A stretch of DNA of 64,000 nucleotides from Phycisphaerales bacterium (GCA_050174775.1 JBFXJP010000005.1:146135-210134); one strand, 5' to 3'. Positions 27,821-64,000 are shown, counted from the first letter of the stretch. Translations and numbers: made by a program. Notes: generated by a model from the letters alone, not told the origin.

Positions 27821-27841
27821 GAGGGGGCTGGTCGAGGGATA

Positions 27842-29200: not shown

Positions 29201-29293
29201 ATGGGGATTGTTCCGTGTTTTGGTGGCTGGACAAGGGGGGAGGCGCGGGAAGGGGGGAGAAGTGGTGATTATCGGCGGATGCGCGGGTGAGAG

Positions 29294-30694: not shown

Positions 30695-30738
30695 GGGAAC
30701 AAGGTACGGGATGGTGGCGTGGAGGTAGATTTGCGCGG

Positions 30739-31443: not shown

Positions 31444-31578
31444 CGGTGGGGGAGGGGGAAGCGAGGCAAAGCGCAAGGGTTGCGCGGGGGATCGGAAAAG
31501 TCGCTGATCGCTGTGGGTGATGTGTGCGTGGCGGAGCGCCGATGTCGCGTTGGTCACGTATGCGGAGGAGTTGCGCGT

Positions 31579-31836: not shown

Positions 31837-31929
31837 CGGGCGCGCTGTGCGGGCGTGTCTCGCGCGGCGTGGCTGGGTGATTGTGATTCCTGACGGCGGC
31901 GCTTGTGCAACAGGCGCCGCTGCTTTTCA

Positions 31930-33072: not shown

Positions 33073-33084
33073 GCGCGGGTGTGA

Positions 33085-33588: not shown

Positions 33589-33657
33589 GTCGTCTCGCTC
33601 CTGTGGTGTGCTCGGGGAGCGGATGCTAGGCATGGGGTGTGGGGCCTACTGTTGTGC

Positions 33658-35490: not shown

Positions 35491-35542
35491 GCGGCGCGCC
35501 TGGTGGGGGCGCGCATTGGGGGGCGGAACCTAGGATGGTGTC

Positions 35543-38500: not shown

Positions 38501-38593
38501 GGTGAGGGCTCGACGTCGGGGCTGCTGGCGGCGAAGCGTCGCGCGGCGCGGCGGTTTGAGCAGGGTGAGGAGGGGTCGGAAAGCGGGGCATGA
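35543..38593 (+). CDS. Giant membrane protein: BatA-type N-terminal double-TM domain plus two vWA domains
   Basis: GTG start. N-terminus FADPLWLALLALSLPTVW. vWA MIDAS-like VFVVDVSESV and IVIDSSGSMG. C-terminal TM LWRSLLVWAVIVMLLDV. Confidence 0.8.
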   Translation: MSLRFADPLWLALLALSLPTVWATLKWLHAMTRFRSWTVGAARVVLLALIAGALAGASAVTRTDRVGVVFVVDVSESVRRFAPGARDASGNEVGVERAVREWIGRAMEGRRPDDLVGVVAFDGSAIATAAARARALTPEDVEIGVTLGEGTDIGGALRLASALIPSGVAHRIVLVSDGAETSGDALAAVAESTGSTPIDVLPLSYRVQSEVVVESVDVPPQAQENATVAVRVSMYATGPARGRLTLLREGRAVDINGGEGGVSRALEWGPGRKVEVIPVPLTDGRVHRFEAVFEPEGVGAGLGGDTSTVNNRAGGVVISPGKGAVLLVDGVSRGEAGGAGRTVAQALERAGLTVEVVGASAFPTDPLALQRYDLVMLENVPAEDVSARTQQSLVDFVRDLGGGLVMIGGPDSFGAGGWKGSALEEVLPVRLDLPEELIIPSAALMIVIDSSGSMGMPVLGSARSQQEIANEGAALAVRTLDKQDLIGVIAFDSESHEVVRLQKNSDPEGVARKIRGISPGGGTNLYPALAQAGNRLMSVEAQVKHVIVLSDGVSMGDPTEGGAIAAELSDHGITVSTIAVGDGADVHTLAEIALEGGGQHYRVTDPNMLPRIFLKETRVVRKPLVRESDFVPVDTRSGSALTLGMPGEIPPLGGLVLTRARLAEPGTPPAIVDLVAPSGEPVLAHWRVGLGQVAAFTSDAHKWASRWVEWPGYQILWSQIARAVSRPPFGRDYDLTVSTEGEMVRVRLEARDEEGAPRDLLTIPGVVYGPGGAREPIVLRQTGPGVYTGEAPARSAGSYVAALTPREGGRMLAPAVGATTREAGPELRVLRSNDALLREIASRSGGRVLSMNDPMGAWLFARQGLPPTVSASPLWRSLLVWAVIVMLLDVATRRVAWDRLITREAAAELARMAMSRGKKESGPEAVGAMRRAKERVDRRAGEPGRGGGRVVASTGQGTAGAARGSVERARGPVEESRDRGERVVEEGEGSTSGLLAAKRRAARRFEQGEEGSESGA

Positions 38594-38774
38594 GGTGGGG
38601 AAGTCCGGAAACCTGGGGGCGGGCGCGGGTGTATAAGGCCTAGCGACTCGGGGTCGGCACGGTGTCTGTGCGCCGTGAACCTGCCTCGACCGGACTTTTA
38701 CGAGCCGATTCGTCGACGGCGTGCTCGAGCGGGCTGCGGCGTCCGGCACGGAGCAATTGCAGAGGAGCCGACCC

Positions 38775-41700
38775 ATGGCTGAGCGGACGTTTCAGGAAGG
38801 ACGAGCGGGCAAACGAAGCACGGTGCGCACCGGGGCGGCGCTGCTGGCGTTGACGGGGCTGGCGCTGGCGAGCGTGGCGAGCGCGTGGGCGCAGGACGGG
38901 ACGGAGGGGCAGCCGGGCATCCCGCCGGAGGCGCTTGCCGCGATGAAGGCGGCGCAGGGCGGGGGCAAGGGGGGGGACGACAAGAAGGAAGATTTCCCGA
39001 AGTTCGACGAGGTGATCAAGGAGTACACGAAGGTCGTGTCGACGGCGGACGGCGCCGCGAGCATGTACACGCTGTACCGGCGCGACAAGGACAACCAGCT
39101 GCTGGCGGAGCTGCCTCGTGATTTCGAGCGGCAGAAGCTGTTCGTGGCGACCACGATCGCGGGGGGCACTCCCACGGCGGGCATCCAGTTCGGCGACACG
39201 TTCGTGTACTGGAAGCGCGTGGACAAGCGGCTCATGCTGGTGCAGCCGAACCTCGGCGTGCGCTCGACGGGGGACCTCGAATCGCAGAAGTCGCGCGACA
39301 ATCTCTTCACCGATCGCGTGCTGCTCGACGTGCCGATCGTGACGATGAGCCCGGGTGGAGGCCCGGTGATCGACCTGGACGACCTGCTCGTGGGGCAGGC
39401 GGACAAGTTCTTCGGGCCGATGACCAAGGGCGTGAACAAGGCGCTCGCGGAGCTGGACAAGGCCAAGGCGTTCCCGCAGAACATCGAGGTGGCGTTCCGG
39501 ATGCCGCTCGCGGCGGCGGGCGGCTCGCTGACCACGCTGCACTATTCGTGGAGCGTGCTGCCGGAGAACACGGGGTACAAGCCGCGCACGGCGGACCCGC
39601 GCGTCGGCTATTTCACGACGGTGTATCAGGAGCTGGGGCAGCCCGGCTCGGAGCAGCCGTACACGCGCTACATCAACCGGTGGCAGCTGGAGAAGGCGGA
39701 CCCGAGCCTGAAGCTCAGCCCGCCCAAGCAGCCCATCGTGTTCTTCATCGAGCACACCACGCCCGTGCGCTATCGGCGCTGGGTGCGCGACGGCATCCTC
39801 GATTGGAACAAGGCCTTCGAGAAGGTCGGCATCGTGAACGCGGTCGAGGTGTATCAGCAGGACGCGCGCTCGGGCGCCCACATGGACAAGGACCCCGAGG
39901 ACGTCCGCTACAACTTCTTCCGCTGGAACTCGAACTCGATCGGGTTCGCGATCGGGCCGTCGCGCGTCGATCCGCGCACGGGGCAGATCCTCGACGCGGA
40001 CATCGTGATGAACGACGGGTTCATCCGCTCCTACGGGCGGACGTTCAAGAACCTCGTGCCGCAGGTGGCGATGGAGGGGTTCAACCCGCAGACGCTCCGC
40101 TGGCTGGAGACGCGTCCGCAGTGGGACCCGCGTCTGCTGCTGGCGGACGGCGCCGAGCGGCAGCGGCTGCTGGCCGAGCGCGCCGCGCGCTTCGCTTCGG
40201 GCGAGCCGATGCCCCTGCCGGGCATGCCCGCGGAGAGCCACGAGGGGCCGACGTTGCTGGGCGCCTCGGCCTATGACGGGCTCGCCAACCGCATCTCGCA
40301 GGTCAACGGCGGGTGCGCGCACTCCACCTTCAAGGCCATGGACGTCTCGCTGATGCGTCTGGGCTTCGACGCGCTCGACACGATGCGCCTGGCCGCGAAG
40401 CCGGGGGAAGGTTCTCCGGGCGGGGGCGACGGTGATGACAACCTCATCGACGGGCTCCCTGAGGAGTACATCGGCGAGCTGATCAAGGAAGTCACGGCGC
40501 ACGAGGTCGGGCACACGCTCGGCCTGCGTCACAACTTCAAGGCGTCGTCCCTCTACGACATGAAGGAGATCAACGCGGCCGAGTTCAAGGGCAAGGCCCA
40601 GGTCGGCTCGGTGATGGACTACAACCCGGTCAACATCAACTTCAACGACGGGCCCGCGCAGGGCGACTGGGTGACGCCCGTCATCGGCCCGTACGACTAC
40701 TGGGTGATCGAGTACGGGTACACGGCGGAGAACGACCTCAAGCCGATCCTCGCCAAGTGCACCGACCCGAACCTCGCGTACCTCACCGATGAGGACACGT
40801 GGGGCCCTGACCCGTACGCGCGCCGGTTCGACTTCGGCAAGGACCCCGTCGGCTGGGCCGAGTCGCGCATGCGTCTCGTGCAGCACCTGCGCTCCAAGAT
40901 CCTCGAGCGCGCGGTGAAGGACGGGGAGTCGTGGGAGAAGGCCCGCACGGCGTACCTCGTGACGCTGGGCCAGCACGTCTCCGCCCTGTCGGTCTCGGCC
41001 AACTGGGTCGGCGGCTCGTTCGTGAATCGTGATCGCAAGGGCGACGTGGTCTCTTCCACGGGTAAGTCGCGCGACCCGATCGAGAACATCCCGGCCGAGA
41101 CGCAGCGCCGCGCGATGCGCCTGGTCATCGACAACGCGTTCAAGGATGAGGCGTTCGGTCTGACGCCCGAGCTGCTCGCCAAGATGTCCATCGACAAGTG
41201 GTGGGACGAGGGCGGCATGAGCGGGATCTACGAGGACCCGACGTACCCGGTGCACGAGCGCGTCGCGGCGGTGCAGTCGTCCGCGATGACGATGCTGGTC
41301 AACCCCACGACGCTCTCGCGCGTCTACGACAACGAGCTGCGCGTGCCGTCGGGCGAGGACGCCCTCACCGTGGCCGAGGTCATGACGGCCACCACCGACG
41401 CGATCTGGTCGGAGCTGGACGGTCGGTCGACGGGCAAGTACACGGCGCGCCAGCCGATGATCTCGAGCCTGCGTCGGAATCTGCAGCGCGATCACCTCAA
41501 CCGGCTGATCGACCTGACGATGCCGTACGCCCTGGGCGGGTCCGCGGCCGAGAACGCCGTGGCCACCCTCTCCTGCCTCAAGCTGCGCGAGATCCAGTCT
41601 CGGATCGGCAAGGCCCTGGGCAAGGACGAGGCGGGCGCGGGTCTTGACCCGTACTCCGTCGCGCACCTTGTCGACGCCAAGAAGCGCATCGAGAAGGCGC

Positions 41701-50276: not shown

Positions 50277-50588
50277 TCACGCCCCGAGTGTACCTCGCGC
50301 GCCCTCCCGCTCGCTCCCCCTCGATGCCTCCACCCGACCCGCCATCAACCCCCCGATCAGCCCCGACAACGACCGCTGCCCCGCCTCCACCGCCGCCACG
50401 GCCCGCGTGTTCTCCGTCACCACCGACATCAACGCCTCCAACTGCACCTTCTGCTCCATCACCCGCGCGTGCGCCTCGCCAAGCTGCGTCTCCCGCTGCA
50501 CCGCCCCGCGACGCTCCATCAGCCACATCCACGCGATCAGCCCCGCCGCCCCGAACTGCGCCAGCTCCGTCCACATCGCGCTCTCCAT
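50277..50588 (-). CDS. Small TM plus coiled-coil protein (i-spanin- or Mu gp25-like architecture)
   Basis: N-terminal TM LAQFGAAGLIAWMWLM, then a helical Q/E/R/A segment. 103 aa. Confidence 0.5.
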   Translation of the reverse strand: MESAMWTELAQFGAAGLIAWMWLMERRGAVQRETQLGEAHARVMEQKVQLEALMSVVTENTRAVAAVEAGQRSLSGLIGGLMAGRVEASRGSEREGARGTLGA

Positions 50589-50606: not shown

Positions 50607-50978
50607 TTATGTCAGGCGCGCATAATCCGCCCGGTACGCCAGGCTGATCGCCCTCCCCCGGTCCACGCGCTCCTCCGGACGGAACGTCAGCAGCGTCATG
50701 CTCGACCACGTCCGCCCGTTGTTGTCCACCAGCGCGCCCGTCAGCTGCGATTCGCAGCGCGCCCGGATCGTCTCCACCTGCGTCCACAGGTCCGCCTCGT
50801 TCGCCCCGATCAGGCGCCCGGCCTGCTCGATCTGCACCTGCAGGTTCGCCGAGAACACCACGATCAGGTCCTGCAGCACGTCCACGCGCAGCGGCGGAAC
50901 CCACAGCTTCCCCACCTTCTTCAGCGCAAACCGGTGCGGCCCCGAATTGAACAACGACTGTCCCGCGATCGTGCTCAT
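50607..50978 (-). CDS. Phage-cassette hypothetical protein (123 aa)
   Basis: Normal composition. ATGA overlap with the upstream ORF at 50975-50978. Confidence 0.5.
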   Translation of the reverse strand: MSTIAGQSLFNSGPHRFALKKVGKLWVPPLRVDVLQDLIVVFSANLQVQIEQAGRLIGANEADLWTQVETIRARCESQLTGALVDNNGRTWSSMTLLTFRPEERVDRGRAISLAYRADYARLT

Positions 50979-51376
50979 CCCGCCACCTCCACCACAGGGT
51001 CCGCCGCGCCGTCCGACGAGATCGCCACCATCACGATCCGCTGCGTCGCGCCCCCCTTCGCGCTCAGCTCGTGCTCCACACTCTCCACCACCACGCTCGC
51101 CACGAACTCACGCGACCCAGCGTCCGTCCCCCCCGATCGCTTCCACCGCAGCTCGCCCGCCTCCCCCGTCTTCGCGGGCGCCGCTTCATCCGTCGTCAGC
51201 TGCCGTTTCAACCGGATCATCACGCGCTGCTCCGGCGCATCCGCGAACACCACGTGCGGCCCCTTGTCGCTCCGCTCCAGCGCCAATCCCCCCGACAGCC
51301 GATCCACCGTCAGCGCCTCCACGTTGTCCAGCGCCTTCCCCAGCAGCGTCACGCTCCCAGGCCGCACCACCAGCAT
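50975..51376 (-). CDS. Phage-cassette hypothetical protein (133 aa)
   Basis: Normal composition. 12-nt gap to the upstream ORF. Confidence 0.5.
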   Translation of the reverse strand: MLVVRPGSVTLLGKALDNVEALTVDRLSGGLALERSDKGPHVVFADAPEQRVMIRLKRQLTTDEAAPAKTGEAGELRWKRSGGTDAGSREFVASVVVESVEHELSAKGGATQRIVMVAISSDGAADPVVEVAG

Positions 51377-51388: not shown

Positions 51389-52036
51389 TCACGCCCGCGT
51401 GAGACGCGTCACGCTCATCCGCCTCGTCGCATCCGCCACCCCGTCCCCGTTCAGATCGATCAACGCCGCCACGCGCTGCCGCTCCTCACGGAACCGCTCC
51501 CGATACGCCTCCGCCTTCGCCCACGTCGCCGACGTCTCGCCCACCATCGCGCTGGCGCTCGACAGGATCGCGTGCATCGCGCCCAGCGCCTCCACCCGCG
51601 CGAGCGACCCCGGATTCACGATCGAGGTCTCCCCCACCTCCCCAAGCTGCCCCACGCTCCCCGGCTCGATCCCCAGCATCCGCAGCACCTGCCCGTGCGC
51701 CACGCTCAACTGCGCCCGGAACGTCATCACCACCAGCGTCGCGCCCGACATCGTCCCCGGCGGGATCGCAACCCCGCCCGCCTCCTCCCGCACGCGCGAC
51801 ACCGTCAGCTGCGTCGCGCTCAACCGCGCCACCACCTCCATCACCGCGCCGTTCACCAGCGCCACGTGCCCCGCCGTCACCCCCGCCGTCACGAAGTCGC
51901 TCCCCGCGCTCGTCAGCGTCGTCCCCGACACGCTCACCCCGCTCGCCTCCACCACGCGCTGCGCCGACCACCCCACCTCCCGAAACAACCCCGGCTCCAG
52001 CACCAGCAGATCCCTGTCCGTTGCGAACCCCATCAC
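51389..52036 (-). CDS. Phage-cassette hypothetical protein (215 aa), possible head-completion/adaptor protein
   Basis: Sits directly downstream of the capsid gene. Begins ..FATDRDLLVLEPGLF, reminiscent of head-tail connector N-termini (weak). Confidence 0.5.
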   Translation of the reverse strand: MMGFATDRDLLVLEPGLFREVGWSAQRVVEASGVSVSGTTLTSAGSDFVTAGVTAGHVALVNGAVMEVVARLSATQLTVSRVREEAGGVAIPPGTMSGATLVVMTFRAQLSVAHGQVLRMLGIEPGSVGQLGEVGETSIVNPGSLARVEALGAMHAILSSASAMVGETSATWAKAEAYRERFREERQRVAALIDLNGDGVADATRRMSVTRLTRA

Positions 52037-52155: not shown

Positions 52156-53328
52156 TCAACTCGTCGCCAACCCGCTCAGCACGCCGTGCGCGTTCTCGTT
52201 GCGGAACTCCAGCGTGTACTCACCGATCACCTGCCCCGCCTCGCTGTCCCCCGTCACCGCGTGCGGCTTGTACTGGAAGCTCCGTCCCGCCAGCGGCAGC
52301 ACGTCCACGCGCGACGAATCCAACAAGAGCGCCATGTCCGGCGGCATCCACCGGCTCAGGATCACCCGCGCCACACCGAAATCGCTCTCGTACACGCTCA
52401 CCAGCTCGCGGAACTTCGTGTCGCCGGGTGTGTACCCCACGTTCCCCGTCACGAACGAGTTGATCTTCCGTTTCTGGAAACCACCCACCACGATCGTGTC
52501 GATCTGCCCCGCCGAACTCTCCCACACGCGCCGCAGCGCCGCGTTCAGCACGTCCTCCGTCAGCCCGTTGTTCCCGCCCCCCGACCCCTGCGGCATGCCC
52601 CCCGCGCCCGGCTGCATCTTGTTCGTCACGATCGACGACAGCACCCCCCGCATCGTGCGCCGCACCGTCGACGAGCCCTGCTGCGTCGTGCTCGGCGCCA
52701 CCCCGTTCAGCACGCAGTTCTCCAGATCGCGCAGCAGCTCCCGCACGCGCTCCTGCTTCTGATAGTCCAGCTCGTCCTGCACCCCGATCGACTTCACCGC
52801 AAGCTGCGACCCCGACACCTCCACCGACGCGGTCAGGATCTGCGTGAAATTCGTCCGCCGGACGCGGCTCGTGAACCGCGCCGCAGGCCGCGCATCTCCC
52901 TCCAGCGCCGCGTTCCCGATGATCAGCAGCTTCATGTCGTCCGCCAGCGCCGTCGCCGTCGTGCCCCCGTACCCGCGCTGCACCGTCAACGCGTTCCCGA
53001 TCACGCCCGTCACCAGCATCACCTCGCCCGACGTCCCGGGCCGCACCTGATCGCCGACCTGAAACCGCGAGCCGTTGTCCACCACGAAGCTCGTCGCCGC
53101 CGTCGCGTTCGGCGTGAAGCTCGACTGATTCACCTGGTCCGTGTTGGGCAACAGCGCATCCTCCACCCACTCGTGCACCGTGCTCCGCGCCACCCGCGCC
53201 GGATCACCCAGGTGATCCAGCAGCGGCGTCTCGAACGGCGACACGATCCCGATGATGTCGCTCACGTCCTCCGCAATCTCCGGCAGATCCGCCCCCGCAC
53301 CGTACGTCGCCTTCCCCGTAAACGGCAT
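52156..53328 (-). CDS. Phage major capsid protein (SU10/DUF5309-like, from memory)
   Basis: 390 aa. N-terminal DIIGIVSPFETPLLDHLGD...STVHEWVEDAL resembles the signature of that capsid family. Position after the portal and scaffold genes supports the call. Confidence 0.75.
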   Translation of the reverse strand: MPFTGKATYGAGADLPEIAEDVSDIIGIVSPFETPLLDHLGDPARVARSTVHEWVEDALLPNTDQVNQSSFTPNATAATSFVVDNGSRFQVGDQVRPGTSGEVMLVTGVIGNALTVQRGYGGTTATALADDMKLLIIGNAALEGDARPAARFTSRVRRTNFTQILTASVEVSGSQLAVKSIGVQDELDYQKQERVRELLRDLENCVLNGVAPSTTQQGSSTVRRTMRGVLSSIVTNKMQPGAGGMPQGSGGGNNGLTEDVLNAALRRVWESSAGQIDTIVVGGFQKRKINSFVTGNVGYTPGDTKFRELVSVYESDFGVARVILSRWMPPDMALLLDSSRVDVLPLAGRSFQYKPHAVTGDSEAGQVIGEYTLEFRNENAHGVLSGLATS

Positions 53329-53405: not shown

Positions 53406-53963
53406 TCACCGACCGCGCTTCAGACGCAGGTACCGCAGCAACGCGCCGCGATCACCCGTCACCGCGGCCTCCTCAGCCGCATCCTCCAATGCGCTGCTCC
53501 AACGCTCCCCCACTCGACCGCTCATCACCGACGCCCCCGCGCCGCTCACATGCCCATGCCCGAACAACCAACCCTTCGTCCGCTTCAAGTCCTCGATCGC
53601 CACCGCCACATCCGGCGCATCCATCTCCTCCACCGCGGCCTCCGTCAGCAGCCGCGCCGCCGCGATGTCCACCGCCCCGGCCTCGGCCAGACAACACTCG
53701 ATCTGCCGCTTCCGCTCGCTCGCGTCCAACGCCTCCCGCGCCGCCTCCAGATCCTCCAACGCGCCCGCCAACTTCCCCTTCAACTCTTCCACAAGCGCCT
53801 CCGCCTCGAGCGCCCGCTTCCGCCAGCGCTGCTCCTCCGTCACCACCTCCACATCACCAGCCCCCCCCTCACCACCCGGCCCCGGCCCTCCACCGCCACC
53901 CTCCAGCGGCGGACCCCCGCCCCCACCCTCACCATCTCCCAAACCACCCGCACCAGGCATCAC
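53406..53963 (-). CDS. Phage scaffolding-like protein
   Basis: 185 aa. Gly-rich N-terminus, then an acidic coiled coil (EEQRWRKRALEAEALVEELKGKLAGALEDLEAAREAL). Lies between the portal and capsid genes. Confidence 0.6.
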   Translation of the reverse strand: MMPGAGGLGDGEGGGGGPPLEGGGGGPGPGGEGGAGDVEVVTEEQRWRKRALEAEALVEELKGKLAGALEDLEAAREALDASERKRQIECCLAEAGAVDIAAARLLTEAAVEEMDAPDVAVAIEDLKRTKGWLFGHGHVSGAGASVMSGRVGERWSSALEDAAEEAAVTGDRGALLRYLRLKRGR

Positions 53964-53986: not shown

Positions 53987-55403
53987 TCAGACCACGCCCT
54001 CATCCCCCACCGCATACCCCAGCTCCGCCAGCGCCACGCTCGCCGGCACGCCCAGCTCGCGCTTCAGCCGCGCTTCCTCCAGCCGCTCGCGCTCGCTCCG
54101 GGGCAGCGCGTCCGGCCACACCACCCGCACCCTCCGCTCCGCCTCGCTCGTCCGGAACACCCCCATCCGGTCCAGCGCCGTCAGCGCCATCCGGCTCATC
54201 TCCGCGATCCCGCGCCCGTACGTCACGCGCTTCCGCGCCGTCTTCGTCACCAGCCCCTGCAGCGTCACCCGCAACGCGTTCTCGCTCGACAGATTCCCCA
54301 CCTTCGACAGCACCCCCGTCACGATCGGCGTCACGCTCGACGCCTTGTCCATCGCCTCACGCACCTCCCGGATGTGCGCCTCCTCCGACGGCGACGCCAT
54401 GTCCCCCCCGATCGCGTCCACGCTCGCCTGCTCGTTGTCCGTCCACCACACCATCCCCGCCCCGATCGGCGCCGCGTCCACCGGCTCCAGCCCCTTCGCG
54501 AGATACATCTGGAAACTCTGCATCGTCACCCGATGCGCCCGGTCCGACAGCCTCGTGTTCAGCTCGTCCTGCAGCGGGATCAGCGGCTCCACCTCCCCGA
54601 ACCCCGAATACTCGAGCGGCTGCGCGATGTTCTGCACGTGCGCGATCGGAACCTCCCCGAGCCCGTGCTCCTCCTCCTCGCGCAGCCTCCCGTCCACGTA
54701 CAACTGCCGCGCCCGCGCCGAGAACACCTCCACCACCTCTTCCCGACCGCGCTGCGCGCTCGACCTCCACTTCATCCCGAACCGCGCCAGCGCGGCACGC
54801 CCGCGATCCGCCTCCCGCACCACCTCCGTCGTCTCGCGCTCAAACCGCACCACGTACGCGTCCAGCGCCCGGTAGTCCCGCGCGCTCACCAGCGGGATCC
54901 CGCGCGTCGGCTCCACCACCTCGATCCTAACCCCCGCGCCCCGCCGTCCGCAGCAGCAGGTCCACGTGCCCGTACACCGCGCCCAACAGCGCCATGTCCT
55001 GCAGCAGCGCGATCCCGCCGGACCCCTCCCACACCCCGTCCAGCACACGCGCGATCTCCTCGCGCCGACCCGCGTCCTCCACCTGCGCCGCCACCGTCAC
55101 CGGCCGCCCGAACATGAAGTCCACCATCGCATGCACCCGCCACGCGATGTCATTCTCGACCACGCGCTCCTTCTGATCATCCCGATCATCCTGCCCGCGC
55201 TTCCGACGCTTGAACCGGCTGGGCAGCCCCTCCTCCTGCGCCAAACGCCCGCGCCCCGAACCATTCTCCACCCGCGCATTGCGGTAATACGCCCACAACC
55301 GACGCATCCCCGGCACGCGCCGCCTCTCGTGCTCCTCGATCAGCACGCCCAGCAGCGCCGCGTCCAGACCCACCTCCGCAAACGGCCCCAGCGAATAAGC
55401 CAC
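53987..55403 (-). pseudogene. Phage portal protein interrupted by a +1 frameshift
   Basis: N-terminal 158-aa ORF (54927-55403) and C-terminal ORF (53987-55048) are in different frames. They join at a G5 run (C5 at 54931-35 on the plus strand; minus-strand GGGGGTTAG spans 54927-54935). Joined length is about 470 aa. Confidence 0.6.
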
Positions 55404-55579
55404 GCGCGAGCCCTCCTCTCACCCTCCCCGTCCCAGGCCCGCCCGCGTGCGCACCCACACCGCTCCTCCGCCCCACGCGCACGCCAAAACGCCCGCCGCG
55501 TCAGCGAAAAAAATCCTCAATCGCTCTGGAGCCCCCGCCCCCCGAAAGCCGCCCCGCGCGCACAACCCCGCGACGTCAC

Positions 55580-55861
55580 TCAGCCCGCCGCGGCGTCCGC
55601 CTCCTCCAACAGCTCCACTCGGCTGTACCGGTCCAGGTTCACCACCACCCGCTCCCCGTCATCCTTCTTCAGCTCCAGCCGGTCCAGCCACAGCTTGTCG
55701 TCCTTGCTGTGCGCAAACCACGACCCCGTCTTCTGCTGGCCGAAGCGCACCACGACCCCCTCGACGTCGATCGTCATCACGTCCTTGATCCGCGGGATCT
55801 GCTGCGTCACGCGCACCCGCTGACCAACCCGGTATTCATGAGGCTCAAGCGCTCGTCCCAT
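55580..55861 (-). CDS. Small hypothetical protein (93 aa)
   Basis: Beta-rich, well-balanced composition. Lies 36 nt downstream of the flgM-like gene and 176 nt upstream of the portal gene. Confidence 0.5.
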   Translation of the reverse strand: MGRALEPHEYRVGQRVRVTQQIPRIKDVMTIDVEGVVVRFGQQKTGSWFAHSKDDKLWLDRLELKKDDGERVVVNLDRYSRVELLEEADAAAG

Positions 55862-55897: not shown

Positions 55898-56212
55898 TCA
55901 CGCCCGCAGATCGATCTCGCGCGTCAACGCGCTCACCGTGGCGTCCACCACCTCATGGCTCTCATAGAACCCCGAGGCGATCCGCTCCCGGGCCCGCGCA
56001 ATCACATCCTCACGCACGTCCGGCAGCTCCTTCAACTTCGCCAGAAACAACGCTCGATCCGACAACTCCACCCGGTCCTCATCACCCGCCCGACCCGCGC
56101 TCACCGAGGGCTGACTCGCGCCGATGCTCCGGTCCGCGCGCCCACCACTCCGAACCGATTCCACCCGGGAAAAACCAACCTCGTGCACGCCATTGATCGT
56201 AAAGTCTGACAT
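55898..56212 (-). CDS. flgM: Anti-sigma-28 factor FlgM-like protein
   Basis: 104 aa. C-terminal VELSDRALFLAKLKELPDVREDVIARARERIASGFYESHEVVD fits the FlgM pattern V.LS..A....LP.VR.dkV..lk.aI.sG.Y. Confidence 0.7.
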   Translation of the reverse strand: MSDFTINGVHEVGFSRVESVRSGGRADRSIGASQPSVSAGRAGDEDRVELSDRALFLAKLKELPDVREDVIARARERIASGFYESHEVVDATVSALTREIDLRA

Positions 56213-56526
56213 GAGCGTCCCGTCTGTTCCCTGCCGGCCCGCCCGAGACTCCGCTCGAACCGCGCCGTCTCGCGCCGCGCCACACCGGCCGCGACACGAA
56301 ATCCCCCGAATCCCGCCGCCGTGATCGGGCCGCTCCCGCGAACCCGCCTCAGGACACTCGCCCAAGGCCCACCTCACGACGACACCCACACTATCGTCCC
56401 CCAGACCGAGAACCCTGCAATCCTTCCCACCACGATTCCACATCACCTAAACCTAAGTCAAGCAACCACTTACATCGGATAACCGCCACCGGACTTCCAC
56501 CCGATTTTCTGCCAAGAGTCACTCCC

Positions 56527-57327
56527 ATGACCCCCAGATCTTGCCCAAATACACACCGAACAAATCTCCTCCTCTTTGCCGCCCTCTTTCTCCTCCTCCT
56601 CCCCCTCGCGCCCACCCACGCCCAGTCCCACAAGAAGGACTCCTCCTCAAACTCCTCCACCTCCACCCCGGAAGGCTGGACCATCGTCCTCGCTACCTAC
56701 GCCGGCCCCGATCACGCCGGGCTCGCGGCGGGCGCGGCCGAGCAGATCCGCACGCTCACTCCTCTGAAGGACGTCCAAACCCAGAACCGAGGCAAGGGCT
56801 CCGTGGTCGTGCTGGGCTCATACCCCTCCCCGGCGGACCCTCAGGCTCAAAAAGACCTCCTGGCCGTCCGCAACACACTCCTTGAAGAGCGCCCCCTCTT
56901 CCTGGCCGCGTTCCTCGCGCCACCGCGCACGCCTTCGGAAGCGGATCCGGGCTCCGCGGCTCCCTTCCCCCTCTCCACCGCCCGAGCCGAGTTCTCCCCC
57001 TACGCCCGCTACACACTTCAGATCGCCATCTACGAATCGCCCAACCTCGACGAGGCCAGAAAGGCCGCGGAAAAAGCCGCGCTCCAACTCCGACGCGACG
57101 GCGAGCCCGCCTTCTACTACCACGGCCCCACCGCCTCCCTGGTCACCCTCGGCGCCTTCACCGACGCCGACGCCGGCATCTCCAAGCCCATCGAGTCACC
57201 GCTCCTTGCCCAGCTTCGCAAACGACACCCCCACAATCTCTACAACGGCAACCAGCAGCTCCTCCAGAAGACCCCGGGCGCCAAGGACAAGACCCCTCAG
57301 CCCTCGTTCCTTGTCGAGATCCCCTGA
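56527..57327 (+). CDS. Secreted protein with two SPOR-like domains
   Basis: Signal peptide LLLFAALFLLLLPLAPTHA. GWTIVLATYAGPDHAG...SVVVLGSY and YTLQIAIYESPNLDEARKAAEK...LVTLGAF resemble SPOR repeats. Confidence 0.55.
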   Translation: MTPRSCPNTHRTNLLLFAALFLLLLPLAPTHAQSHKKDSSSNSSTSTPEGWTIVLATYAGPDHAGLAAGAAEQIRTLTPLKDVQTQNRGKGSVVVLGSYPSPADPQAQKDLLAVRNTLLEERPLFLAAFLAPPRTPSEADPGSAAPFPLSTARAEFSPYARYTLQIAIYESPNLDEARKAAEKAALQLRRDGEPAFYYHGPTASLVTLGAFTDADAGISKPIESPLLAQLRKRHPHNLYNGNQQLLQKTPGAKDKTPQPSFLVEIP

Positions 57328-58726: not shown

Positions 58727-59485
58727 ATGAAACGCGCACGCCACAACGTGTCTCGCGCTTTCACCATCAGCGAGCTTCTCGTCTCGATCGGCGTCATCGG
58801 CGTGCTCATCGCCATCACGCTCCCCGCGCTGCGTTCGAGCCGTGCCGTCACGGGCGCCACGGCCTCGCTTGCCAACCTGCGCTCGCTCGGGCAATCCCTC
58901 CAACTCTCCACGCAACGTAACAACGAGCGTTTCCCGTTCCCCCCTCGACGTGGAGAGAGTTGGGGCCCGCTGTATTGGGAGCCTCCGCACCCGAACGCGG
59001 CCCAGCACTTCTACGGAGACGTCTGGTACTACGGTCGCTTCTTCTGGCCCGCGCTGCTGCACGACGTGGCGCCCTGGCCCGAGCACTACGCATCATGGCT
59101 CTCGCCCAACTACCAGGCTCCCGACGGAGACAACCCGCTCTGGGAGCGTGTGCCGATCGTGTCGTACTTCTATTCGACGGCGTTCTACGCGGCGCCGAGA
59201 GTGTGGGACGTGTCGCTCCGTGCGAACGTCACCGCGCACGACATTGCGCAGCAGCCCGTTTCGGTCGTCTCCTTCCCGAGCGCGAAGGTGATCGCGTATG
59301 ACCGTGATCGCTCGTACATCACGAGGATGACGCCCGACGCGCAGCGCCCCGTGCTCTTTGTCGACGGCAGCGCATCGCTGCGGCTGGATCGTGACGCCGC
59401 GGAGCCCGTGCAGAACCCGTTGAGCGCTGATTCTCCCGCGCGCTATCACGACACCCCGCTCGGCGCCGCGGGGCGCGACTTCTGA
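58727..59485 (+). CDS. Prepilin-type N-terminal cleavage/methylation protein (DUF1559, H-X9-DG family)
   Basis: N-terminus RAFTISELLVSIGVIGVLIAITLPAL. C-terminal VLFVDGSASL (DG motif). Confidence 0.8.
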   Translation: MKRARHNVSRAFTISELLVSIGVIGVLIAITLPALRSSRAVTGATASLANLRSLGQSLQLSTQRNNERFPFPPRRGESWGPLYWEPPHPNAAQHFYGDVWYYGRFFWPALLHDVAPWPEHYASWLSPNYQAPDGDNPLWERVPIVSYFYSTAFYAAPRVWDVSLRANVTAHDIAQQPVSVVSFPSAKVIAYDRDRSYITRMTPDAQRPVLFVDGSASLRLDRDAAEPVQNPLSADSPARYHDTPLGAAGRDF

Positions 59486-59826: not shown

Positions 59827-60666
59827 TCAGAACATCGGGCGCTTCGGTCGCTGCTCGGGGCCCACGGAGCGGATGACCCGGACCGCGACGTAGAGCCCGG
59901 CCACTTCTTCGCGGTGCACGACGCGCGGGCCGTAGCGGGAGTTGAGGGGCTGGAGTCTGATCCGCACGGCCTCGTCGCCTTCGCGCTCGAAATACACGCG
60001 TTTGAAGGTGGTTTCGGCGTCGCGTTCGAGCCGGACGAAGCAGTCGTCGCCGTCGACGGCGCTGAGTTCGGGGCTGAAGACGACGATGTCGCCCTCTGCG
60101 TACTGGGGGGACATGGAGTCGCCGACGACTCGGGCGCCGAAGGCGTCGGGGTCGGAGACGTCGGGGACGCGCACGTGATCGTCCGCAACTCGTGCGGGAT
60201 AGCCAAGATCGGTGAATTCGCGCGGGTAGCCGGCGGCCACGGAGTTGATGACGGGGACGTGGATGGGGAGGCCGACGAGCTCGACGTTGGTGCGCGGCGC
60301 GGCGCCTGAGAGGCGGTCGACCAGGGACTGGAGTTCGCCGGACTGCCAGACGTCGTCAAGTGATTGGGAGCGAACGAGTTCGGCGAGCCGGCGGCCGGCG
60401 TTGCTCGCCTCGGCCATCTCGCGCATCTCGGCCCGGACGGGCTCGGGCATCGACTCGAAACTAGCCATTTTCACGAGGATTCCGGGCTCCAGACGGAGGG
60501 CTTCCTCGAGGCGTGCGAGCAGCGAGGGGGAGGGGGCGCCGGTGGTTTTGCCGTTCTCGATCTGGGAGAGGTAGGACTTGTGACACCGAACCGTGTCGGC
60601 GAGCGCCTGCAGGGTCATTTCCCGCGCTGTTCTGTGGTTCCTCAAGAATTGGCCGAGACGCTTCAT
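59827..60666 (-). CDS. CI/LexA-like autocleavable repressor (HTH_XRE plus S24 peptidase)
   Basis: HTH is LQALADTVRCHKSYLSQIENGK. Cleavage-site motif is NSVAAGYP (Ala-Gly). Ser is in VVGDSMSP and Lys in TFKRVY. ATG preceded by CACAGGAGC. Confidence 0.85.
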   Translation of the reverse strand: MKRLGQFLRNHRTAREMTLQALADTVRCHKSYLSQIENGKTTGAPSPSLLARLEEALRLEPGILVKMASFESMPEPVRAEMREMAEASNAGRRLAELVRSQSLDDVWQSGELQSLVDRLSGAAPRTNVELVGLPIHVPVINSVAAGYPREFTDLGYPARVADDHVRVPDVSDPDAFGARVVGDSMSPQYAEGDIVVFSPELSAVDGDDCFVRLERDAETTFKRVYFEREGDEAVRIRLQPLNSRYGPRVVHREEVAGLYVAVRVIRSVGPEQRPKRPMF

Positions 60667-60785
60667 CGCCCGCTCCTGTGCGCCGTTTCCTGGTGATACC
60701 AAACAAACACCTTGCAAACAAGACTGTATCCGATAAAACTCCGAACATCGAGTTGAGCGATCAATAGACGAGCGGCTTATCCAGA
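60667..60785. promoter_or_regulatory. Divergent promoter/operator region of the repressor switch
   Basis: Lower-GC spacer. Contains TTGCAA-16 nt-TAAAAC (60712-60739, plus strand), CAAACAA direct repeats at 60700-60706 and 60715-60721, and a GATAC/GTATC inverted pair at 60695-60699 and 60726-60730. Confidence 0.4.
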
Positions 60786-61274
60786 ATGAGACGGGAGGGC
60801 GCCATGGTCGGAGGACAGGCGATCGGGATGCGGGCGGGTCGGAGCGCGGTGCGGGAGCTGGATCGGATCGATCCGGATCGGGTGGCGGACCTTCGTCGGA
60901 GGCATGGTCGGGAGGAGACGGAGCGGGTGTTGGCGTTGGCGGAGCACGTGGGTGCGGAGGAGCGGGCGCTGCTGCGCGCGGTGTTCGAGGGAGGGGTGTC
61001 GGTGGGGGAGTTGGCGCGGGTGAGGGGGTGTCCGGTGCGGACGTTGCGGCGCGAGGTGCGCGGTCTGGTGAGGAGGGTGACGGACCCGCGGTTCGTGTTC
61101 GTGCTGTCGAGGCGTGAGGGGTGGGGGGCTGGTCGGAGGAAGGTGGCGAGCGCGTGCGTGTTGCAGGGGTTGAGTCTGCGGGAGGCCGCGCGGGAGGCGG
61201 GGCTGACGCTGCACACGGTGCGTCGGCACATGGGGGCGATCGAGGCGTTGTTTGATGCGGAGAGCGCGGCGTGA
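60786..61274 (+). CDS. Regulator with two sigma-70 region-4/LuxR-like HTH units
   Basis: VSVGELARVRGCPVRTLRREVRGLVRRV and LSLREAAREAGLTLHTVRRHMGAIEAL. Start codon uncertain. Confidence 0.55.
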   Translation: MRREGAMVGGQAIGMRAGRSAVRELDRIDPDRVADLRRRHGREETERVLALAEHVGAEERALLRAVFEGGVSVGELARVRGCPVRTLRREVRGLVRRVTDPRFVFVLSRREGWGAGRRKVASACVLQGLSLREAAREAGLTLHTVRRHMGAIEALFDAESAA

Positions 61275-62593
61275 GTGAGCGGGTGTTGCGAGCGTGCGCG
61301 ATGTTCGGGCTGCCGCCTGAGGAGGCGCGCGAGGCGGCGAGGGAAGCGGTGCGCGCGGGGAGGGAGATCTCGGCGCGAGGGGGGACGATCACGCTGCTGA
61401 CGGGGGCGAGCGGCTCGGGGAAGACGAGCGCGCTGCGGAGCGCGGTGGAGCAGTGGCGCGCGGAGGGGCGGATGGTGATCGAGGCGCGGCCGGCGTCGAG
61501 GCGCGCGTGGCGGCGCGCGTGCGTCGAACTGGTGGGGGAAGGGGAGGGAGAGGAGGGGGTGGCGCGCGCGATGCGGAGGCTGTCGCAGGTGGGGCTGGGC
61601 GAGGCGCGGTGCTTCGTGCGGAGCGCGCGGGAGTTGTCGGAGGGGCAGCGGGAACGGCTATGGCTTGGGATGGCGCTGGAGCGCGCGGCGCGGACGGCGG
61701 GGAGCGTGATCGTGGTGGATGAGTTTCTCGCGCGGTTGGATCGGGTGACCGCGCGGGTGACGGCGCGGTGCTTCGCGCGGGCGGTGCGTCAGGAGGGGGT
61801 GAGCGCGGTGGTGGCCACGGCGCACGATGACCTGGAGGAGGCGCTGGGGGCGGACGAGGTGGTGCGGTTCGGGTTGGATGGAGGGGTGCGTGTGACGCGG
61901 GGGGCGGGGGAGAGCGCGGCGCTGGAGGTGGAGTACGGGGAGGCGGAGTGGGAGGAGTGCGCCGGGTTGTTGCGGTTTCACTATCGCGGCGCGCGGCCGG
62001 CGATGGTGGCGCGGGTGATGGCGGCGCGCGTGGAGGGAGAGGTGGTGGGGGCGTTGATCGTGGCGATGCCGACGTTGAACGGGGTGTGGAGGCGGCTGGC
62101 GTGGGGTGATCGGTATTCGAGCGGGGATCGGCGGGAGTGCGCGCGGCGGCTGAACGCGGAGGTGCGGCGGATCTCGCGGGTGGTGGTTGATCCGCGGTGG
62201 CGGGGCGTGGGGATCGCGAAGGGGCTGGTGCGCGCGTATCTGGATGCGCCGCTGACGGCGCGGACGGAGGCGGTGGCGGCGATGGGGGCGGTGTGCCCGT
62301 TCTTCGAGCGCGCGGGGATGCGTGCGCATCGGGCGCCGGCGGGGCATCGGGATGCGCGGCTGCTGGACGTGTTTGCGCATCTCGGGGTGCGTGAGTGGGA
62401 GACGTGTGACGGCGCGCGTGTGCTGCGGGCGGCGCGGGAGCGCGGGCTGGAGGCGTGGCTGGAGTGGGAGTTGGAGCGGTGGGTGGGCGACGGGAGGGGG
62501 AGGGAGACGTGTCGAGGCTTGGGCGTGGAGGGGCTGGCGCGGGAGGCGTGTCGGCGGGTGTCGGCGGAGCAGGTGGCGTACACGGATGGATGA
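61271..62593 (+). CDS. ABC-type ATPase fused to GNAT acetyltransferase
   Basis: Walker A GASGSGKTS, signature-like LSEGQRERL, Walker B VIVVDEF and ATAHD, then GNAT motif A RVVVDPRWRGVGIAKGLV. The GTG start overlaps the upstream stop (GTGA). Confidence 0.7.
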   Translation: MSERVLRACAMFGLPPEEAREAAREAVRAGREISARGGTITLLTGASGSGKTSALRSAVEQWRAEGRMVIEARPASRRAWRRACVELVGEGEGEEGVARAMRRLSQVGLGEARCFVRSARELSEGQRERLWLGMALERAARTAGSVIVVDEFLARLDRVTARVTARCFARAVRQEGVSAVVATAHDDLEEALGADEVVRFGLDGGVRVTRGAGESAALEVEYGEAEWEECAGLLRFHYRGARPAMVARVMAARVEGEVVGALIVAMPTLNGVWRRLAWGDRYSSGDRRECARRLNAEVRRISRVVVDPRWRGVGIAKGLVRAYLDAPLTARTEAVAAMGAVCPFFERAGMRAHRAPAGHRDARLLDVFAHLGVREWETCDGARVLRAARERGLEAWLEWELERWVGDGRGRETCRGLGVEGLAREACRRVSAEQVAYTDG

Positions 62594-62794
62594 ATGGAAA
62601 GGAGGCGCGAGGTGCGGCGGGGAACACAGGGCGGGGAATTGTTGTCGTCGTTGACGGTGTTTGTGACGGCGGCGGAGCGGCGGGAGGCGTTGGAGGTGAT
62701 GCGTCGTTTCGATCGGGAGCGTGGGAGGGCGTTCATGGGGATGGCGCGTGCGGCGGCGACGGTGCGTGCGGCGCGGAAGGGGGGGAGGGCGTGA
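62594..62794 (+). CDS. Small basic protein (66 aa)
   Basis: ATG directly abuts the upstream stop. Its own stop overlaps the next ATG (TGATG). No domain recognised. Confidence 0.4.
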   Translation: MERRREVRRGTQGGELLSSLTVFVTAAERREALEVMRRFDRERGRAFMGMARAAATVRAARKGGRA

Positions 62795-63243
62795 TGGGCG
62801 CGAAGCGTGGCGTGGTGGTGGATGCGGACGTGCGGAGCGGTCGGGTGTTGCGGGACGTGTATTCGCTGGTGCGCGAGGCGCCGCAGATCGCGGAGCGTCA
62901 CGGGATGACGTTGCGGGAGCTGGCGTCGTGGGCGAGTTCGGAGGAGGAGCGGAGGACGGTGGAGGGGTTGTGTCGATTTGAGGATGCGCGTGCGGAGTTG
63001 TTGTTGCGGCGTGCGCGGGTGAGCGCGGCGCGGCGGTTGTTGCGGCTTTCGCTGGAGGCGTCTTCGGAGGAGACGAGGCGGAAGGCGTGCGTGGACCTGT
63101 TGCGGATCGGGTCGTCGTCGGGGTTGCGGCGTGTGCGTGAGGAGGAGGAGGAGGGGGAGAGCGGGATGGAGGTGTTGCAGGACGGGCCGGAGGCCGAGGT
63201 GATTCGGGAGACGTTGGAGCGTCGGGGCGCGCAGAGCGCGTGA
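62794..63243 (+). CDS. Candidate small terminase subunit (149 aa)
   Basis: Call rests on position immediately upstream of the TerL-like gene and on a helical N-terminus with an HTH-like segment (IAERHGMTLRELASW). An acidic tail is present. Assignment is positional only. Confidence 0.4.
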   Translation: MGAKRGVVVDADVRSGRVLRDVYSLVREAPQIAERHGMTLRELASWASSEEERRTVEGLCRFEDARAELLLRRARVSAARRLLRLSLEASSEETRRKACVDLLRIGSSSGLRRVREEEEEGESGMEVLQDGPEAEVIRETLERRGAQSA

Positions 63244-63258
63244 GGGAGGGGGTGGGTG

Positions 63259-64000
63259 ATGGCGGGAGGGAGGGTGGTGTCGAGGCGCGCGTTGTTGGGC
63301 GTGCGGCCGAGGACGGAGAACCAGTTGTGGGAGTGGCTGCGTCTGGTGCTGGACGTGGAGGCGTCGCGGCGCGCGTTGGTGGAGGGGAGTGATGCGCCGT
63401 TTTCGTACGTGGCGCACGCGTTCTTCGAGGAGCGTGGCGAGCGGGACGTGGTGGTGTGGGCGAATCGGGGCGGGGGGAAGACGTTCTATGGCGCGGTGGC
63501 GACGGTGTTGGACCTGGTGTTCAAGCCGGGGATCGAGGTGCGCGTGCTTGCGGGGAGCGTGGAGCAGGGGCAGCGGATGCACGGGCACGTGCGGAGGTTG
63601 TTTGAGCGGGAGCGGCTGCGCGGGTTGGTGGACGGGAAGCCGACGGGGAGGAGTTTGCGGCTGACGAACGGGAGTGTGGTGGAGGTGAGCGCGGCTTCGG
63701 AGTCGTCGGTGCGGGGGGCGAGGCCGGTGAAGATGCGGTGTGACGAGGTGGAGTTGTTTGATCCGGAGATCTGGGCGGCGGCGCAGCTGGCGCCGAGGAG
63801 CAGGAGGTGTGGTGGTGTGTGGGCGAAGGCGGGTGTTGAGGCGTTGAGCACGATGCATCGGCCGTGGGGGTTGATGCACGAGTTGACGGGGGACCTGGAG
63901 CGGAAGCAGTTTCGGTGGGGGGTGGTGGATGTGTTGTCGAGGTGCGCGTCAGCGCGGGAGTGTTCGTCGTGCGCGTTGTGGGAGGAGTGTGGGGGGAGAG
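63259..64000 (+). CDS. Large terminase subunit, N-terminal ATPase part (partial, runs off the window)
   Basis: I translated this frame by hand; it has no stop through 64000. Walker A VVWANRGGGKTF, Walker B KMRCDEVELF and a following STMH coupling-like motif. Not in the ORF track because it lacks a stop. Confidence 0.75.
   Translation, partial: MAGGRVVSRRALLGVRPRTENQLWEWLRLVLDVEASRRALVEGSDAPFSYVAHAFFEERGERDVVVWANRGGGKTFYGAVATVLDLVFKPGIEVRVLAGSVEQGQRMHGHVRRLFERERLRGLVDGKPTGRSLRLTNGSVVEVSAASESSVRGARPVKMRCDEVELFDPEIWAAAQLAPRSRRCGGVWAKAGVEALSTMHRPWGLMHELTGDLERKQFRWGVVDVLSRCASARECSSCALWEECGGR

Follow-up and report, generated by a model that had tools for sequence, protein, structure and literature searches.

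A CI/LexA-like repressor divergent from a terminase operon in Phycisphaerales: probable regulatory and packaging half of a domesticated, gene transfer agent-like element

To our knowledge, only a handful of independently domesticated gene transfer agent (GTA)-type systems are known, and none of them in Planctomycetota. The present analysis concerns a stretch of 64,000 nucleotides from an uncultured member of the Phycisphaerales, phylum Planctomycetota (GCA_050174775.1, JBFXJP010000005.1:146135-210134; called the window, meaning the whole stretch analysed), in which a CI/LexA-like repressor gene (Rep) is divergent from an operon ending in the gene for a large terminase (TerL), with a phage-type head module in the vicinity. 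This cassette is probably the regulatory and packaging half of a domesticated, vertically inherited GTA-like viriform, likely to be SOS-inducible and to be controlled by a repressor-to-activator cascade. Among the papers searched, none was found that describes this Phycisphaerae element.

The closest described systems share one or another part of such an arrangement. RcGTA-type GTAs carry an HK97-type capsid protein and are controlled by CtrA, quorum sensing and GafA. In the R- and F-type pyocins of Pseudomonas, the S24 autocleaving repressor PrtR blocks the activator PrtN, which upon DNA damage binds boxes located before the structural genes. Capsid-forming phage-inducible chromosomal islands (cf-PICIs) are mobile and contain packaging, head and connector genes without tails, along with an integrase, AlpA and primase-replication genes. 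In Caulobacter, the LexA/cI-like protein RogA, whose S24-like domain lacks the catalytic residues, targets inverted repeats at the promoter of gafYZ, whose products switch on the GTA cluster and distal loci (PMC9632790). In Bacteroidetes, a non-canonical CI-like LexA composed of an XRE/CI helix-turn-helix (HTH) and an S24 domain controls recA, umuD and dinB (PMC8565304).

Among these, the Caulobacter GTA (CcGTA) with its RogA/GafYZ control is the closest in logic to the Phycisphaerae element, which would likewise be a chromosomal, non-replicating particle system of phage origin. As in the case of RogA, a repressor with HTH and S24-type domains would act through inverted repeats on the promoter of an activator gene, the activator would turn on structural genes at separate loci, and there would be a link to DNA damage and repair. 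RogA has lost its catalytic residues, whereas in Rep the Ala-Gly, Ser and Lys are intact in 95% or more of the 60 species compared, and unlike in CcGTA the putative activator would be co-transcribed with the terminase, the capsid protein is of the SU10/DUF5309 type, TerL is without a close phage relative, the host belongs to Planctomycetota and no tail genes were found. PrtR/PrtN follows the same logic, with pyocins being tails without heads and the Phycisphaerae element heads without tails; homology of this pair to Rep and ORF1 is not claimed, and box binding by ORF1 is a prediction. The tail-less gene set resembles that of cf-PICIs, whereas integrase, AlpA and primase genes are missing and the modules are interspersed with host genes. 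Going by the general description of RcGTA, the element also falls outside the RcGTA-like family, its capsid protein belonging to PF17236 (SU10_MCP)/phrog_1328. With the RcGTA-type GTAs of Alphaproteobacteria (for reviews see PMC11841831 and PMC9662315), it shares clade-wide vertical inheritance, purifying selection, a lack of integrase and replication genes, the use of more than one locus and host-type regulation, whereas its domestication is independent, its capsid and terminase families are different, RcGTA has a full tail, head spikes and lysis genes, and in Phycisphaerae a dedicated CI-like repressor adjoins the terminase.

The element appears to be made of two loosely linked modules, module A at 59.8-64.7 kb (Rep, ORF1 with its HTH, the ABC-ATPase/GNAT gene, p66, p149 and TerL) and module B, the head module, at 49.8-55.9 kb. 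Module A contains the following features (ORF, open reading frame; ECF, extracytoplasmic function).

59827-60666, minus strand: Rep, a 279-aa CI/LexA-like repressor with an XRE HTH, a linker of ~70 aa and a peptidase S24 domain
60667-60785, no strand: divergent regulatory spacer, 119 nt, 50.4% GC against 68.7% in the window
60786-61274, plus strand: ORF1, tandem-HTH protein, sigma-70 region-4/ECF-like twice, in the position of a cro gene or activator (gene-caller start 60804)
61271-62593, plus strand: ORF2, ABC-type ATPase fused to a GNAT acyltransferase-like domain, member of the packaging operon
62594-62794, plus strand: p66, a lineage-specific small ORF detected in few close relatives only
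62794-63243, plus strand: p149, a small ORF immediately upstream of TerL
63259-64000 within the window, plus strand: TerL, N-terminal 247 aa; the full 485-aa protein ends at window-equivalent 64716

A reading made earlier from the sequence alone had described here a minus-strand repressor gene with an XRE HTH, a VAAG motif and the S24 Ser/Lys dyad, a 119-nt spacer of lower GC content, five chained plus-strand ORFs ending in a TerL-like ATPase that leaves the window, and no replication or lysis module between repressor and terminase, and these points held on closer inspection. The N-terminus of Rep (residues 3-62) matches Pfam HTH_31/HTH_3, residues 138-255 match Peptidase_S24 (E 2.7e-17, 63 bits against a cut-off of 23.3), Rep matches phrog_4 'transcriptional repressor' (E 6e-29), and the VAAG cleavage site, the Ser of GDSM and the Lys of FKR are present. 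The length of the spacer is exact, and so is every junction in the chain: ORF1 and ORF2 are joined by a GTGA overlap, the end of ORF2 at 62593 abuts the start of p66 at 62594, p66 and p149 share a TGATG overlap, and a gap of 15 nt follows p149 before the TerL ATG at 63259. The description of the repressor as wired directly to a terminase operon is incomplete, as a tandem-HTH gene, whose product may serve as activator or Cro equivalent, comes first and head genes lie nearby on the other strand.

By its domains and catalytic residues, Rep is classed with the peptidase S24 LexA/lambda CI-type repressors. The Ala-Gly site, the Ser and the Lys are each at least 95% conserved in the 60-species alignment, which makes direct SOS control of Rep plausible, and RecA-dependent cleavage is predicted. 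TerL, whose full length was read from contigs carrying identical proteins (12 public contigs encode an identical p149 protein and two of them reach 10 kb past the window), scores 24 bits against Pfam Terminase_6C, above the threshold of 22.6, and matches the TerL PHROGs weakly; its Walker A (GGGKT), Walker B (CDEVE) and three nuclease Asp residues do not vary among 30 homologues. Four cysteines (C229, C235, C238 and C244) at residues 229-244 (window ~63943-63990), in the stretch that joins the ATPase to the nuclease domain, are likewise invariant in these homologues and suggest a metal-binding insert of a kind that we do not know from large terminases.

The remaining members of the operon are less uniform. 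ORF1, found in 72 of 80 loci, has weak family matches (Sigma70_r4_2, HTH_20, sigma70-ECF) and equally weak matches to sigma region 4, FliA and ECF structures in a profile search against the PDB; its single-sequence AlphaFold model is all-helical and of low confidence (pLDDT 57). It may be an activator, the DNA-recognition subunit of the terminase, or both. ORF2 matches ABC_tran, AAA and Acetyltransf in Pfam and phrog_11143 (E 4e-19), with Walker A, ABC signature, Walker B and GNAT motifs kept. Its AlphaFold model (pLDDT 92.7) has as Foldseek neighbours ABC nucleotide-binding domains, the ATPase-plus-GNAT enzyme TmcA, Mom-like GNATs and a GNAT protein of Leptospira phage LE4 (E 2.5e-15). An ABC ATPase in a ParB-like/packaging block has a precedent in real phages, since in Gordonia phage BiggityBass genes 1-4 encode a ParB-like nuclease, an ABC-like ATPase, a methyltransferase and the terminase, the ATPase gene thus lying two genes ahead of the terminase, and in SSU5-like phages an ABC ATPase lies behind ParB-like genes near the end of the SSU5 genome. 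Neither p66 nor p149 has family matches in Pfam, PHROGs or further profile searches. A p149 homologue is detectable in 12 of the 80 loci, and many species have no ORF between the ATPase-GNAT gene and TerL, the two being only 50-250 nt apart. As p66 and p149 are not universal, the core operon comprises HTH, ABC/GNAT and TerL. By its place p149 may be a small terminase, but with no family match and no universal presence in the clade it cannot be named as such.

The head module, overlooked by the sequence-only reading, occupies the minus strand 4.4 kb to the left of the Rep-terminase cassette and has the following genes.

55580-55861, minus strand: p93, small and highly conserved, usually preceding the portal gene
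53987-55403, minus strand: portal, SPP1_portal family, frameshifted in the window strain
53406-53960, minus strand: scaffold-like protein by position, with a Gly-rich N-terminus and a coiled coil
52156-53328, minus strand: major capsid protein, SU10_MCP/DUF5309 (PF17236), phrog_1328 at E 8e-79
51389-52033, minus strand: s214, small conserved gene after the capsid gene
50975-51376, minus strand: s133, small conserved gene after the capsid gene
50607-50978, minus strand: s123, small conserved gene after the capsid gene
50277-50588, minus strand: s103, small conserved gene after the capsid gene, with an N-terminal membrane helix
49792-50121, minus strand: s109, small conserved gene after the capsid gene

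This order, from p93 through portal, scaffold and capsid protein to s214, s133, s123, s103 and s109, forms a conserved block in a set of 50 head loci of at least 9 kb (47 of 80 metagenomic loci plus those designated L091, L172 and L173), to which no larger or tail-like family was found linked in the 50 loci. The p93 gene adjoins portal in most head loci, with the family at that position in 23 of 50, the scaffold-like gene lies between portal and capsid gene in all of them, and the order of the five small genes is kept in about 35-47 of 50. No family match was obtained for the scaffold-like protein, and nothing significant was found for p93 or the five small proteins in Pfam, PHROG and PDB-profile searches with window copies and relatives. 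The position of the five small genes suggests a role in head completion or in the neck, because in Sporosarcina phage Lietuvens, the nearest cultured phage, the capsid and tail-sheath genes are likewise separated by five small ORFs; by this analogy, the block appears to stop where a tail module would begin. The C-terminus of s214 contains a conserved DLDGDGxAD, with a weak match to the EF-hand Ca-binding loops of polcalcins, through which a head-associated protein might bind Ca. Other genomes have the head module at a site of its own among host genes; in several it adjoins the TerL module or lies within about 30 kb of it, the two being contiguous in L018 and L192, on one contig in L026 and L091, and 17-28 kb apart on one contig in one assembly.

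The case for domestication rests on distribution, synteny and selection. A scan of species-representative genomes (one genome per species) yielded at least 537 tblastn-confirmed stretches, of which the best 80 were analysed as loci, and both modules were found in many Phycisphaerae genomes at about 50-70% protein identity. More than 2800 homologues of TerL were obtained, of which the best 120 all have E < 1e-140 and are 49-90% identical; the named ones among these are Phycisphaerae/Planctomycetota metagenome-assembled genomes (MAGs), many on long chromosomal contigs of up to 3.9 Mb. For the capsid protein more than 4500 homologues were obtained, the best 120 being 67-77% identical except for two at 89-90%, and 388-392 aa long bar one truncated entry. 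The order Rep (minus), HTH (plus), ATPase-GNAT (plus) and TerL (plus) is found in ~66 of 70 complete loci among the best 80, with d85m, DUF6677, d174 and ferredoxin genes downstream in most loci and UbiA/MarR upstream in ~20, and the TerL ORF is unbroken in 78 of 79 loci. Ratios of nonsynonymous to synonymous substitution (dN/dS), computed against two related species, are 0.19-0.23 for TerL, 0.14-0.20 for Rep, 0.15 for the capsid protein, 0.25-0.28 for portal, 0.06 for p93 and, over 46 codons, 0.05-0.16 for p66, with 0.08-0.40 for the flanking host housekeeping genes. Pairwise TerL identities correlate with the UbiA identities (Pearson 0.88) and with the MarR identities (0.85), all with a mean of ~0.57, and the correlation is as good as between two host genes. 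Flanks, identity correlation, dN/dS values of 0.15-0.3 and unbroken ORFs are what vertical inheritance and purifying selection of a GTA would leave. At the same time, phage relatives are distant: the closest TerL relatives among the 2.9 million viral contigs of IMG/VR are 19-35% identical and mostly partial, and in GenBank phages the highest identities are 30%, over part of the protein, in the case of TerL and 31% in that of the capsid protein. By homology, the element is placed in no known phage group. Breadth, synteny, selection and distant phage relatives together argue for a domesticated, vertically inherited element, a conclusion held with high confidence.

The surroundings point in the same direction. 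Past 64 kb, the contig extension that had been proposed as a check runs through the rest of TerL and a few small ORFs, including a DUF6677 membrane protein, into ferredoxin, M16 peptidase, apolipoprotein N-acyltransferase (Lnt), HEAT-repeat protein and MreB genes, and hence, with host genes after TerL, there is no prophage downstream. The left border of the element is formed by UbiX/UbiA/MarR, and 22-46 kb of the window is ordinary host DNA. No integrase, replication, lysis or tail genes were found in the window or within 10 kb on either side, and a search for tRNA genes and att repeats returned none, the repeats reported being low-identity GC-rich direct or inverted matches. Chromosomal phage-derived structural and packaging genes without integration, replication or lysogeny modules are thus what is seen in the window and ~130 related loci. 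The earlier proposal of a stripped-down packaging element in place of a standard prophage agrees with these host flanks and missing modules; of the kinds it named, the GTA-like one fits best with vertical inheritance, purifying selection and split loci, the satellite-like one is unlikely given the lack of integrase and replication genes and the interspersed host genes, and the tailocin-like one was wrong, as capsid and portal genes are present and a tail is not. A conventional temperate prophage (integrase, att, replication, lysis and tail modules all not found), a tailocin (no tail genes), a site-specific satellite (no integrase, host genes interspersed) and an encapsulin or microcompartment (portal and catalytically intact terminase) were each ruled out as candidates.

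Several further observations concern the neighbourhood. Between the modules lie the FlgM-like gene described below and three plus-strand genes restricted to the window's lineage. One gene there, at 58727-59485 (plus strand), encodes a 252-aa protein with a type IV pilin-like N-terminal methylation motif below the Pfam threshold, and with two neighbours it is found only in the window's subclade; bacteria of the Planctomycetes-Verrucomicrobia-Chlamydiae group typically carry many prepilin-like proteins. In most species TerL is accompanied by three genes, two for small membrane proteins (one of 85 aa, the other DUF6677) and one for a protein of 174 aa (L002:11920-13586, just past the window), and in L172 the same block, without family matches, accompanies the head module (L172:14621-16525); it may be part of the element, with a possible function in release or lysis. 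The 17 kb at 22000-39000 show a strongly positive GC skew (+0.3 to +0.5) although genes are called on both strands, which may reflect replication-strand bias or a past rearrangement; at 46-57 kb and 60-64 kb, by contrast, the skew tracks the coding strand of the phage-derived genes.

The spacer between Rep and ORF1 contains, in the window, the following elements.

60677-60683: TGTGCGC half-box
60696-60707: ATACCAAACAAA box (ACC box)
60712-60717: -35-like TTGCAA
60734-60739: -10-like TAAAAC
60753-60764: degenerate operator TTGAGCGATCAA, a weak TTGA-N4-TCAA palindrome

In an alignment of 66 species the order of the elements is fixed: a TGTGCGC box ~10-15 nt upstream of the Rep start, a ATACCATACAA box, CCTTGCAAA with its -35-like TTGCAA, ~17 nt further an A/T-rich -10-like hexamer often within a GTTC..GAAY palindrome, and a strong palindrome with the consensus TGTTCAC-N6-GTGAACA. 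In the 1.36 Mb of loci around TerL from which operator statistics were drawn, the strict palindrome GTTYNC-N6-GNRAAC occurs 31 times, 28 of them inside the Rep-HTH spacer, and such palindromes sit at or after the -10 of the rightward promoter in the clade. TGTGCGC is present exactly once in 54 of 65 spacers, at 4.7/kb against a background of 0.22/kb. A strict sigma-70 scan found no site in the spacer, and the TTGCAA-N16-TAAAAC promoter is our own proposal, founded on cross-species conservation. Rep is presumed to bind the spacer palindromes, a view with qualitative support in that changes in its recognition helix (consensus C-A-K-S-Y-L-S-x-I-E-N) coincide with changes in the operator half-site in three lineages. 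In the window's subclade CHKSYLS is paired with GAGTT(T/G)A, and in the other two lineages IECGK is paired with a GTGTATAC-type site and KPQLSLME with GTTTAC. In one relative with a TerL 83% identical (L177:4430-7525), an IS1595-family transposase and several small ORFs split the operator palindrome at its exact centre, with TGTACG on both flanks. No Rfam matches were found at 48-64 kb.

A second motif connects the two modules. In the window it is found in the promoter region of the portal gene.

55447-55564, no strand: portal promoter region, between p93 and portal
55447-55454: GTGCGCAC box at the portal promoter
55558-55564: GCGCACA box (TGTGCGC on the gene strand) at the portal promoter

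The starts of these two boxes are 111 bp apart. Of 45 head loci, 35 have the 10-bp perfect palindrome TGTGCGCACA, or a sequence close to it, upstream of portal, usually in two copies separated by ~110 bp, at about -195 and -85 relative to the portal start. Upstream of portal, TGTGCGC occurs at 4.7/kb against a background of 0.18/kb and GTGCGCAC at 2.43/kb against 0.034/kb, an enrichment of 26- to 71-fold, and 49 of the ~79 GTGCGCAC sites across all head loci sit in the 1-kb stretch directly upstream of portal. The TGTGCGC box beside Rep is a half-site of the TGTGCGCACA palindrome. The simplest reading is that one factor binds both the portal boxes and the Rep-side half-box. ORF1 is the predicted binder, since its gene leads the derepressed operon and it is an HTH protein with a tandem of sigma-region-4-like parts. 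The layout would suit a repressor-to-activator cascade, Rep being divergent from the HTH gene, the paired boxes preceding portal and a half-box lying in the Rep leader. At the head promoters of L091, L172 and L173 no second Rep-type operator was found. Beside the head module in the window lie a FlgM-like anti-sigma gene (55898-56446, minus strand) and a divergent gene for a 266-aa secreted protein (56527-57327, plus strand), a pair found on the opposite side of the head module in distant relatives (L173:13638-15055; L182 ~13792-15300). With ORF1 being sigma-region-4-like and the FlgM-like gene lying beside the head module, a sigma/anti-sigma relationship is conceivable.

On this basis a sequence of events can be proposed, the cascade details of which are held with moderate confidence. 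Rep dimers on palindromic operators overlapping and following the -10 of the rightward promoter would keep module A silent. DNA damage would lead to RecA filaments and to Rep self-cleavage at the Ala-Gly site, as the conserved AG, Ser and Lys suggest, and the module A operon would be transcribed. The tandem-HTH protein ORF1 would then bind the TGTGCGCACA palindromes, paired before portal and as a half-site in the Rep leader, turning on the head genes with a feedback on Rep, and TerL together with the ABC-ATPase/GNAT accessory protein would fill the heads with DNA. Because the conserved set lacks replication, integration, lysis and tail genes, such particles could not propagate the element; they would either package host DNA in the manner of a GTA or depend on functions encoded elsewhere, and actual gene transfer is held with low to moderate confidence.

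Several findings weigh against this proposal. No tail, lysis or receptor-binding genes are conserved beside either module in any lineage examined, and a complete particle with tail and release function, as expected of a GTA, was not found beside either module. The canonical clade operator was not found in the window, where the best score is 10.3 anywhere and none lies in the spacer, as compared with 18-35 for real sites. The window portal carries an additional G in a G-run near 54930-54940, with a linked C-to-A change 7 nt away, which creates a TAG stop near codon 157; this broken allele is common to four assemblies (the window, L002, L003 and L005), and L001 and L004 of the same species have an intact 471-aa portal. 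This looks like a real strain polymorphism and not a random assembly error, and with its portal frameshifted the window strain may be defective. In Tepidisphaera (L078:7026-7571, minus strand) the Rep orthologue has only 181 aa and keeps the HTH without the GDSM/Lys half of the S24 domain, a RogA-like state, and at L026:6300-8000 no Rep gene adjoins the HTH-TerL operon. The genomes behind the comparisons are MAGs nearly throughout. Finally, the LexA motif of Verrucomicrobia is TGTTC-N4-GAACA, and the GTTC..GAAC palindromes could be host-LexA boxes; the assignment could even be swapped, these palindromes being bound by host LexA and the TGTGCGCACA boxes by Rep.

The alternative that survives best concerns the role of Rep, which might be the clade's own non-canonical LexA, a CI-like XRE-S24 protein acting as global SOS regulator, with the terminase operon as a conserved divergent neighbour and one regulon member. 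The half-sites TGTTC/GAACA resemble LexA boxes as these are generally known, Rep is a single gene at a fixed chromosomal position in the loci examined with about 55% identity clade-wide, and all its cleavage residues are kept. Proven SOS regulators of the CI-like S24 kind in Bacteroidetes (PMC8565304) are conserved chromosomal genes too, with palindromic dyad-spacer operators drifting between lineages, and a comparable role of a phage repressor is reported for Francisella (PMC13148647). Unlike in the Bacteroidetes case, the operator context demonstrated for Rep is the terminase operon only: the concentration of 28 of 31 strict operators in the Rep-HTH spacer speaks against a global regulator, in a sample of 1.36 Mb that does not include the recA, uvrA and imuA promoters. 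Rep also stays far below the equivalog model of canonical LexA (TIGR00498; 28.5 bits against a cut-off of 110.95), which aligns to its C-terminal S24 part only, the N-terminus being of XRE type with no winged-helix LexA_DNA_bind. This alternative is judged unlikely, though it deserves serious consideration; it can be compatible with a domesticated element and would turn Rep from a dedicated immunity repressor into a host master regulator.

It is rather unlikely, in our estimate, that the element is domesticated for a role other than gene transfer, such as the cutting up and encapsidation of the chromosome upon damage (as altruistic death or to dispose of DNA), an anti-phage decoy that diverts incoming phage DNA or packages it wrongly, or DNA secretion for biofilm. 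Such roles would suit the lack of tail and receptor-binding genes beside the modules, the intact nuclease and ATPase of the terminase, the fixed presence in the operon of an unusual ABC-ATPase/GNAT with Mom-like and TmcA-like structural neighbours, and the control by an SOS-type repressor befitting a damage response. On the other hand, searches with PADLOC defence models gave no significant matches to known defence families, only generic HTH and ATPase similarity, tail genes may sit at a third locus, and nothing in the sequence separates these roles from gene transfer.

A capsid-forming, cf-PICI-like satellite, making its own heads, packaging itself and taking tails from a helper phage, is very unlikely: head, neck and terminase genes without tails under a phage-type repressor do match the cf-PICI logic, but no integrase, primase or replication gene, att repeats or tRNA were found within 10 kb on either side, the host genes that part the two modules differ between species (the distance being 17-28 kb in one genome), the element's genes diverge in step with those of the host and have host-like dN/dS, and viral contig collections hold no close relatives. 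Least probable of all is a decaying cryptic prophage remnant with no present function and an accidental gene order, for although the portal frameshift and degenerate operator of the window lineage, the IS1595 element inside a relative's operator and the missing tail and lysis modules are in its favour, a remnant could not persist across a bacterial class with unbroken ORFs and invariant catalytic residues in ~80 species at ~50% identity, dN/dS of 0.15-0.3, conserved promoter motifs and a capsid protein ~62-77% identical and near-constant in length in nearly all of the best 120 of more than 4500 homologues and in 80 metagenome loci, and the window strain alone may carry a recent loss-of-function allele.

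Returning to the domesticated, GTA-like element, its fullest form would be a so far undescribed, independently domesticated class-wide system that produces DNA-filled tail-less heads, or heads completed from a third locus, after DNA damage under a cleavable CI-like repressor and a box-binding activator sharing its transcript with the terminase and with an ABC-ATPase/GNAT enzyme of unique kind, a tentative proposal that we regard as nearly balanced, with a slight leaning to doubt. If true, it would extend GTAs by a family new to science and to a further phylum, and its regulatory code could be read from sequence. The regulatory predictions that come with the element are explicit: an SOS-cleavable repressor, two operator types and paired boxes at the head promoter. 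Phycisphaerae are common in marine, wastewater and soil samples, and in surveys of their MAGs the element is liable to be mis-called as an incomplete prophage. With no tail genes found and an ABC-ATPase/GNAT fixed in the operon, the capsids might serve a function other than classical transduction. The element would also be a second, unrelated case of the logic known from Caulobacter, in which a LexA-like repressor controls an activator and the activator controls the particle genes, and such a second case would suggest convergent rules for the taming of phages.

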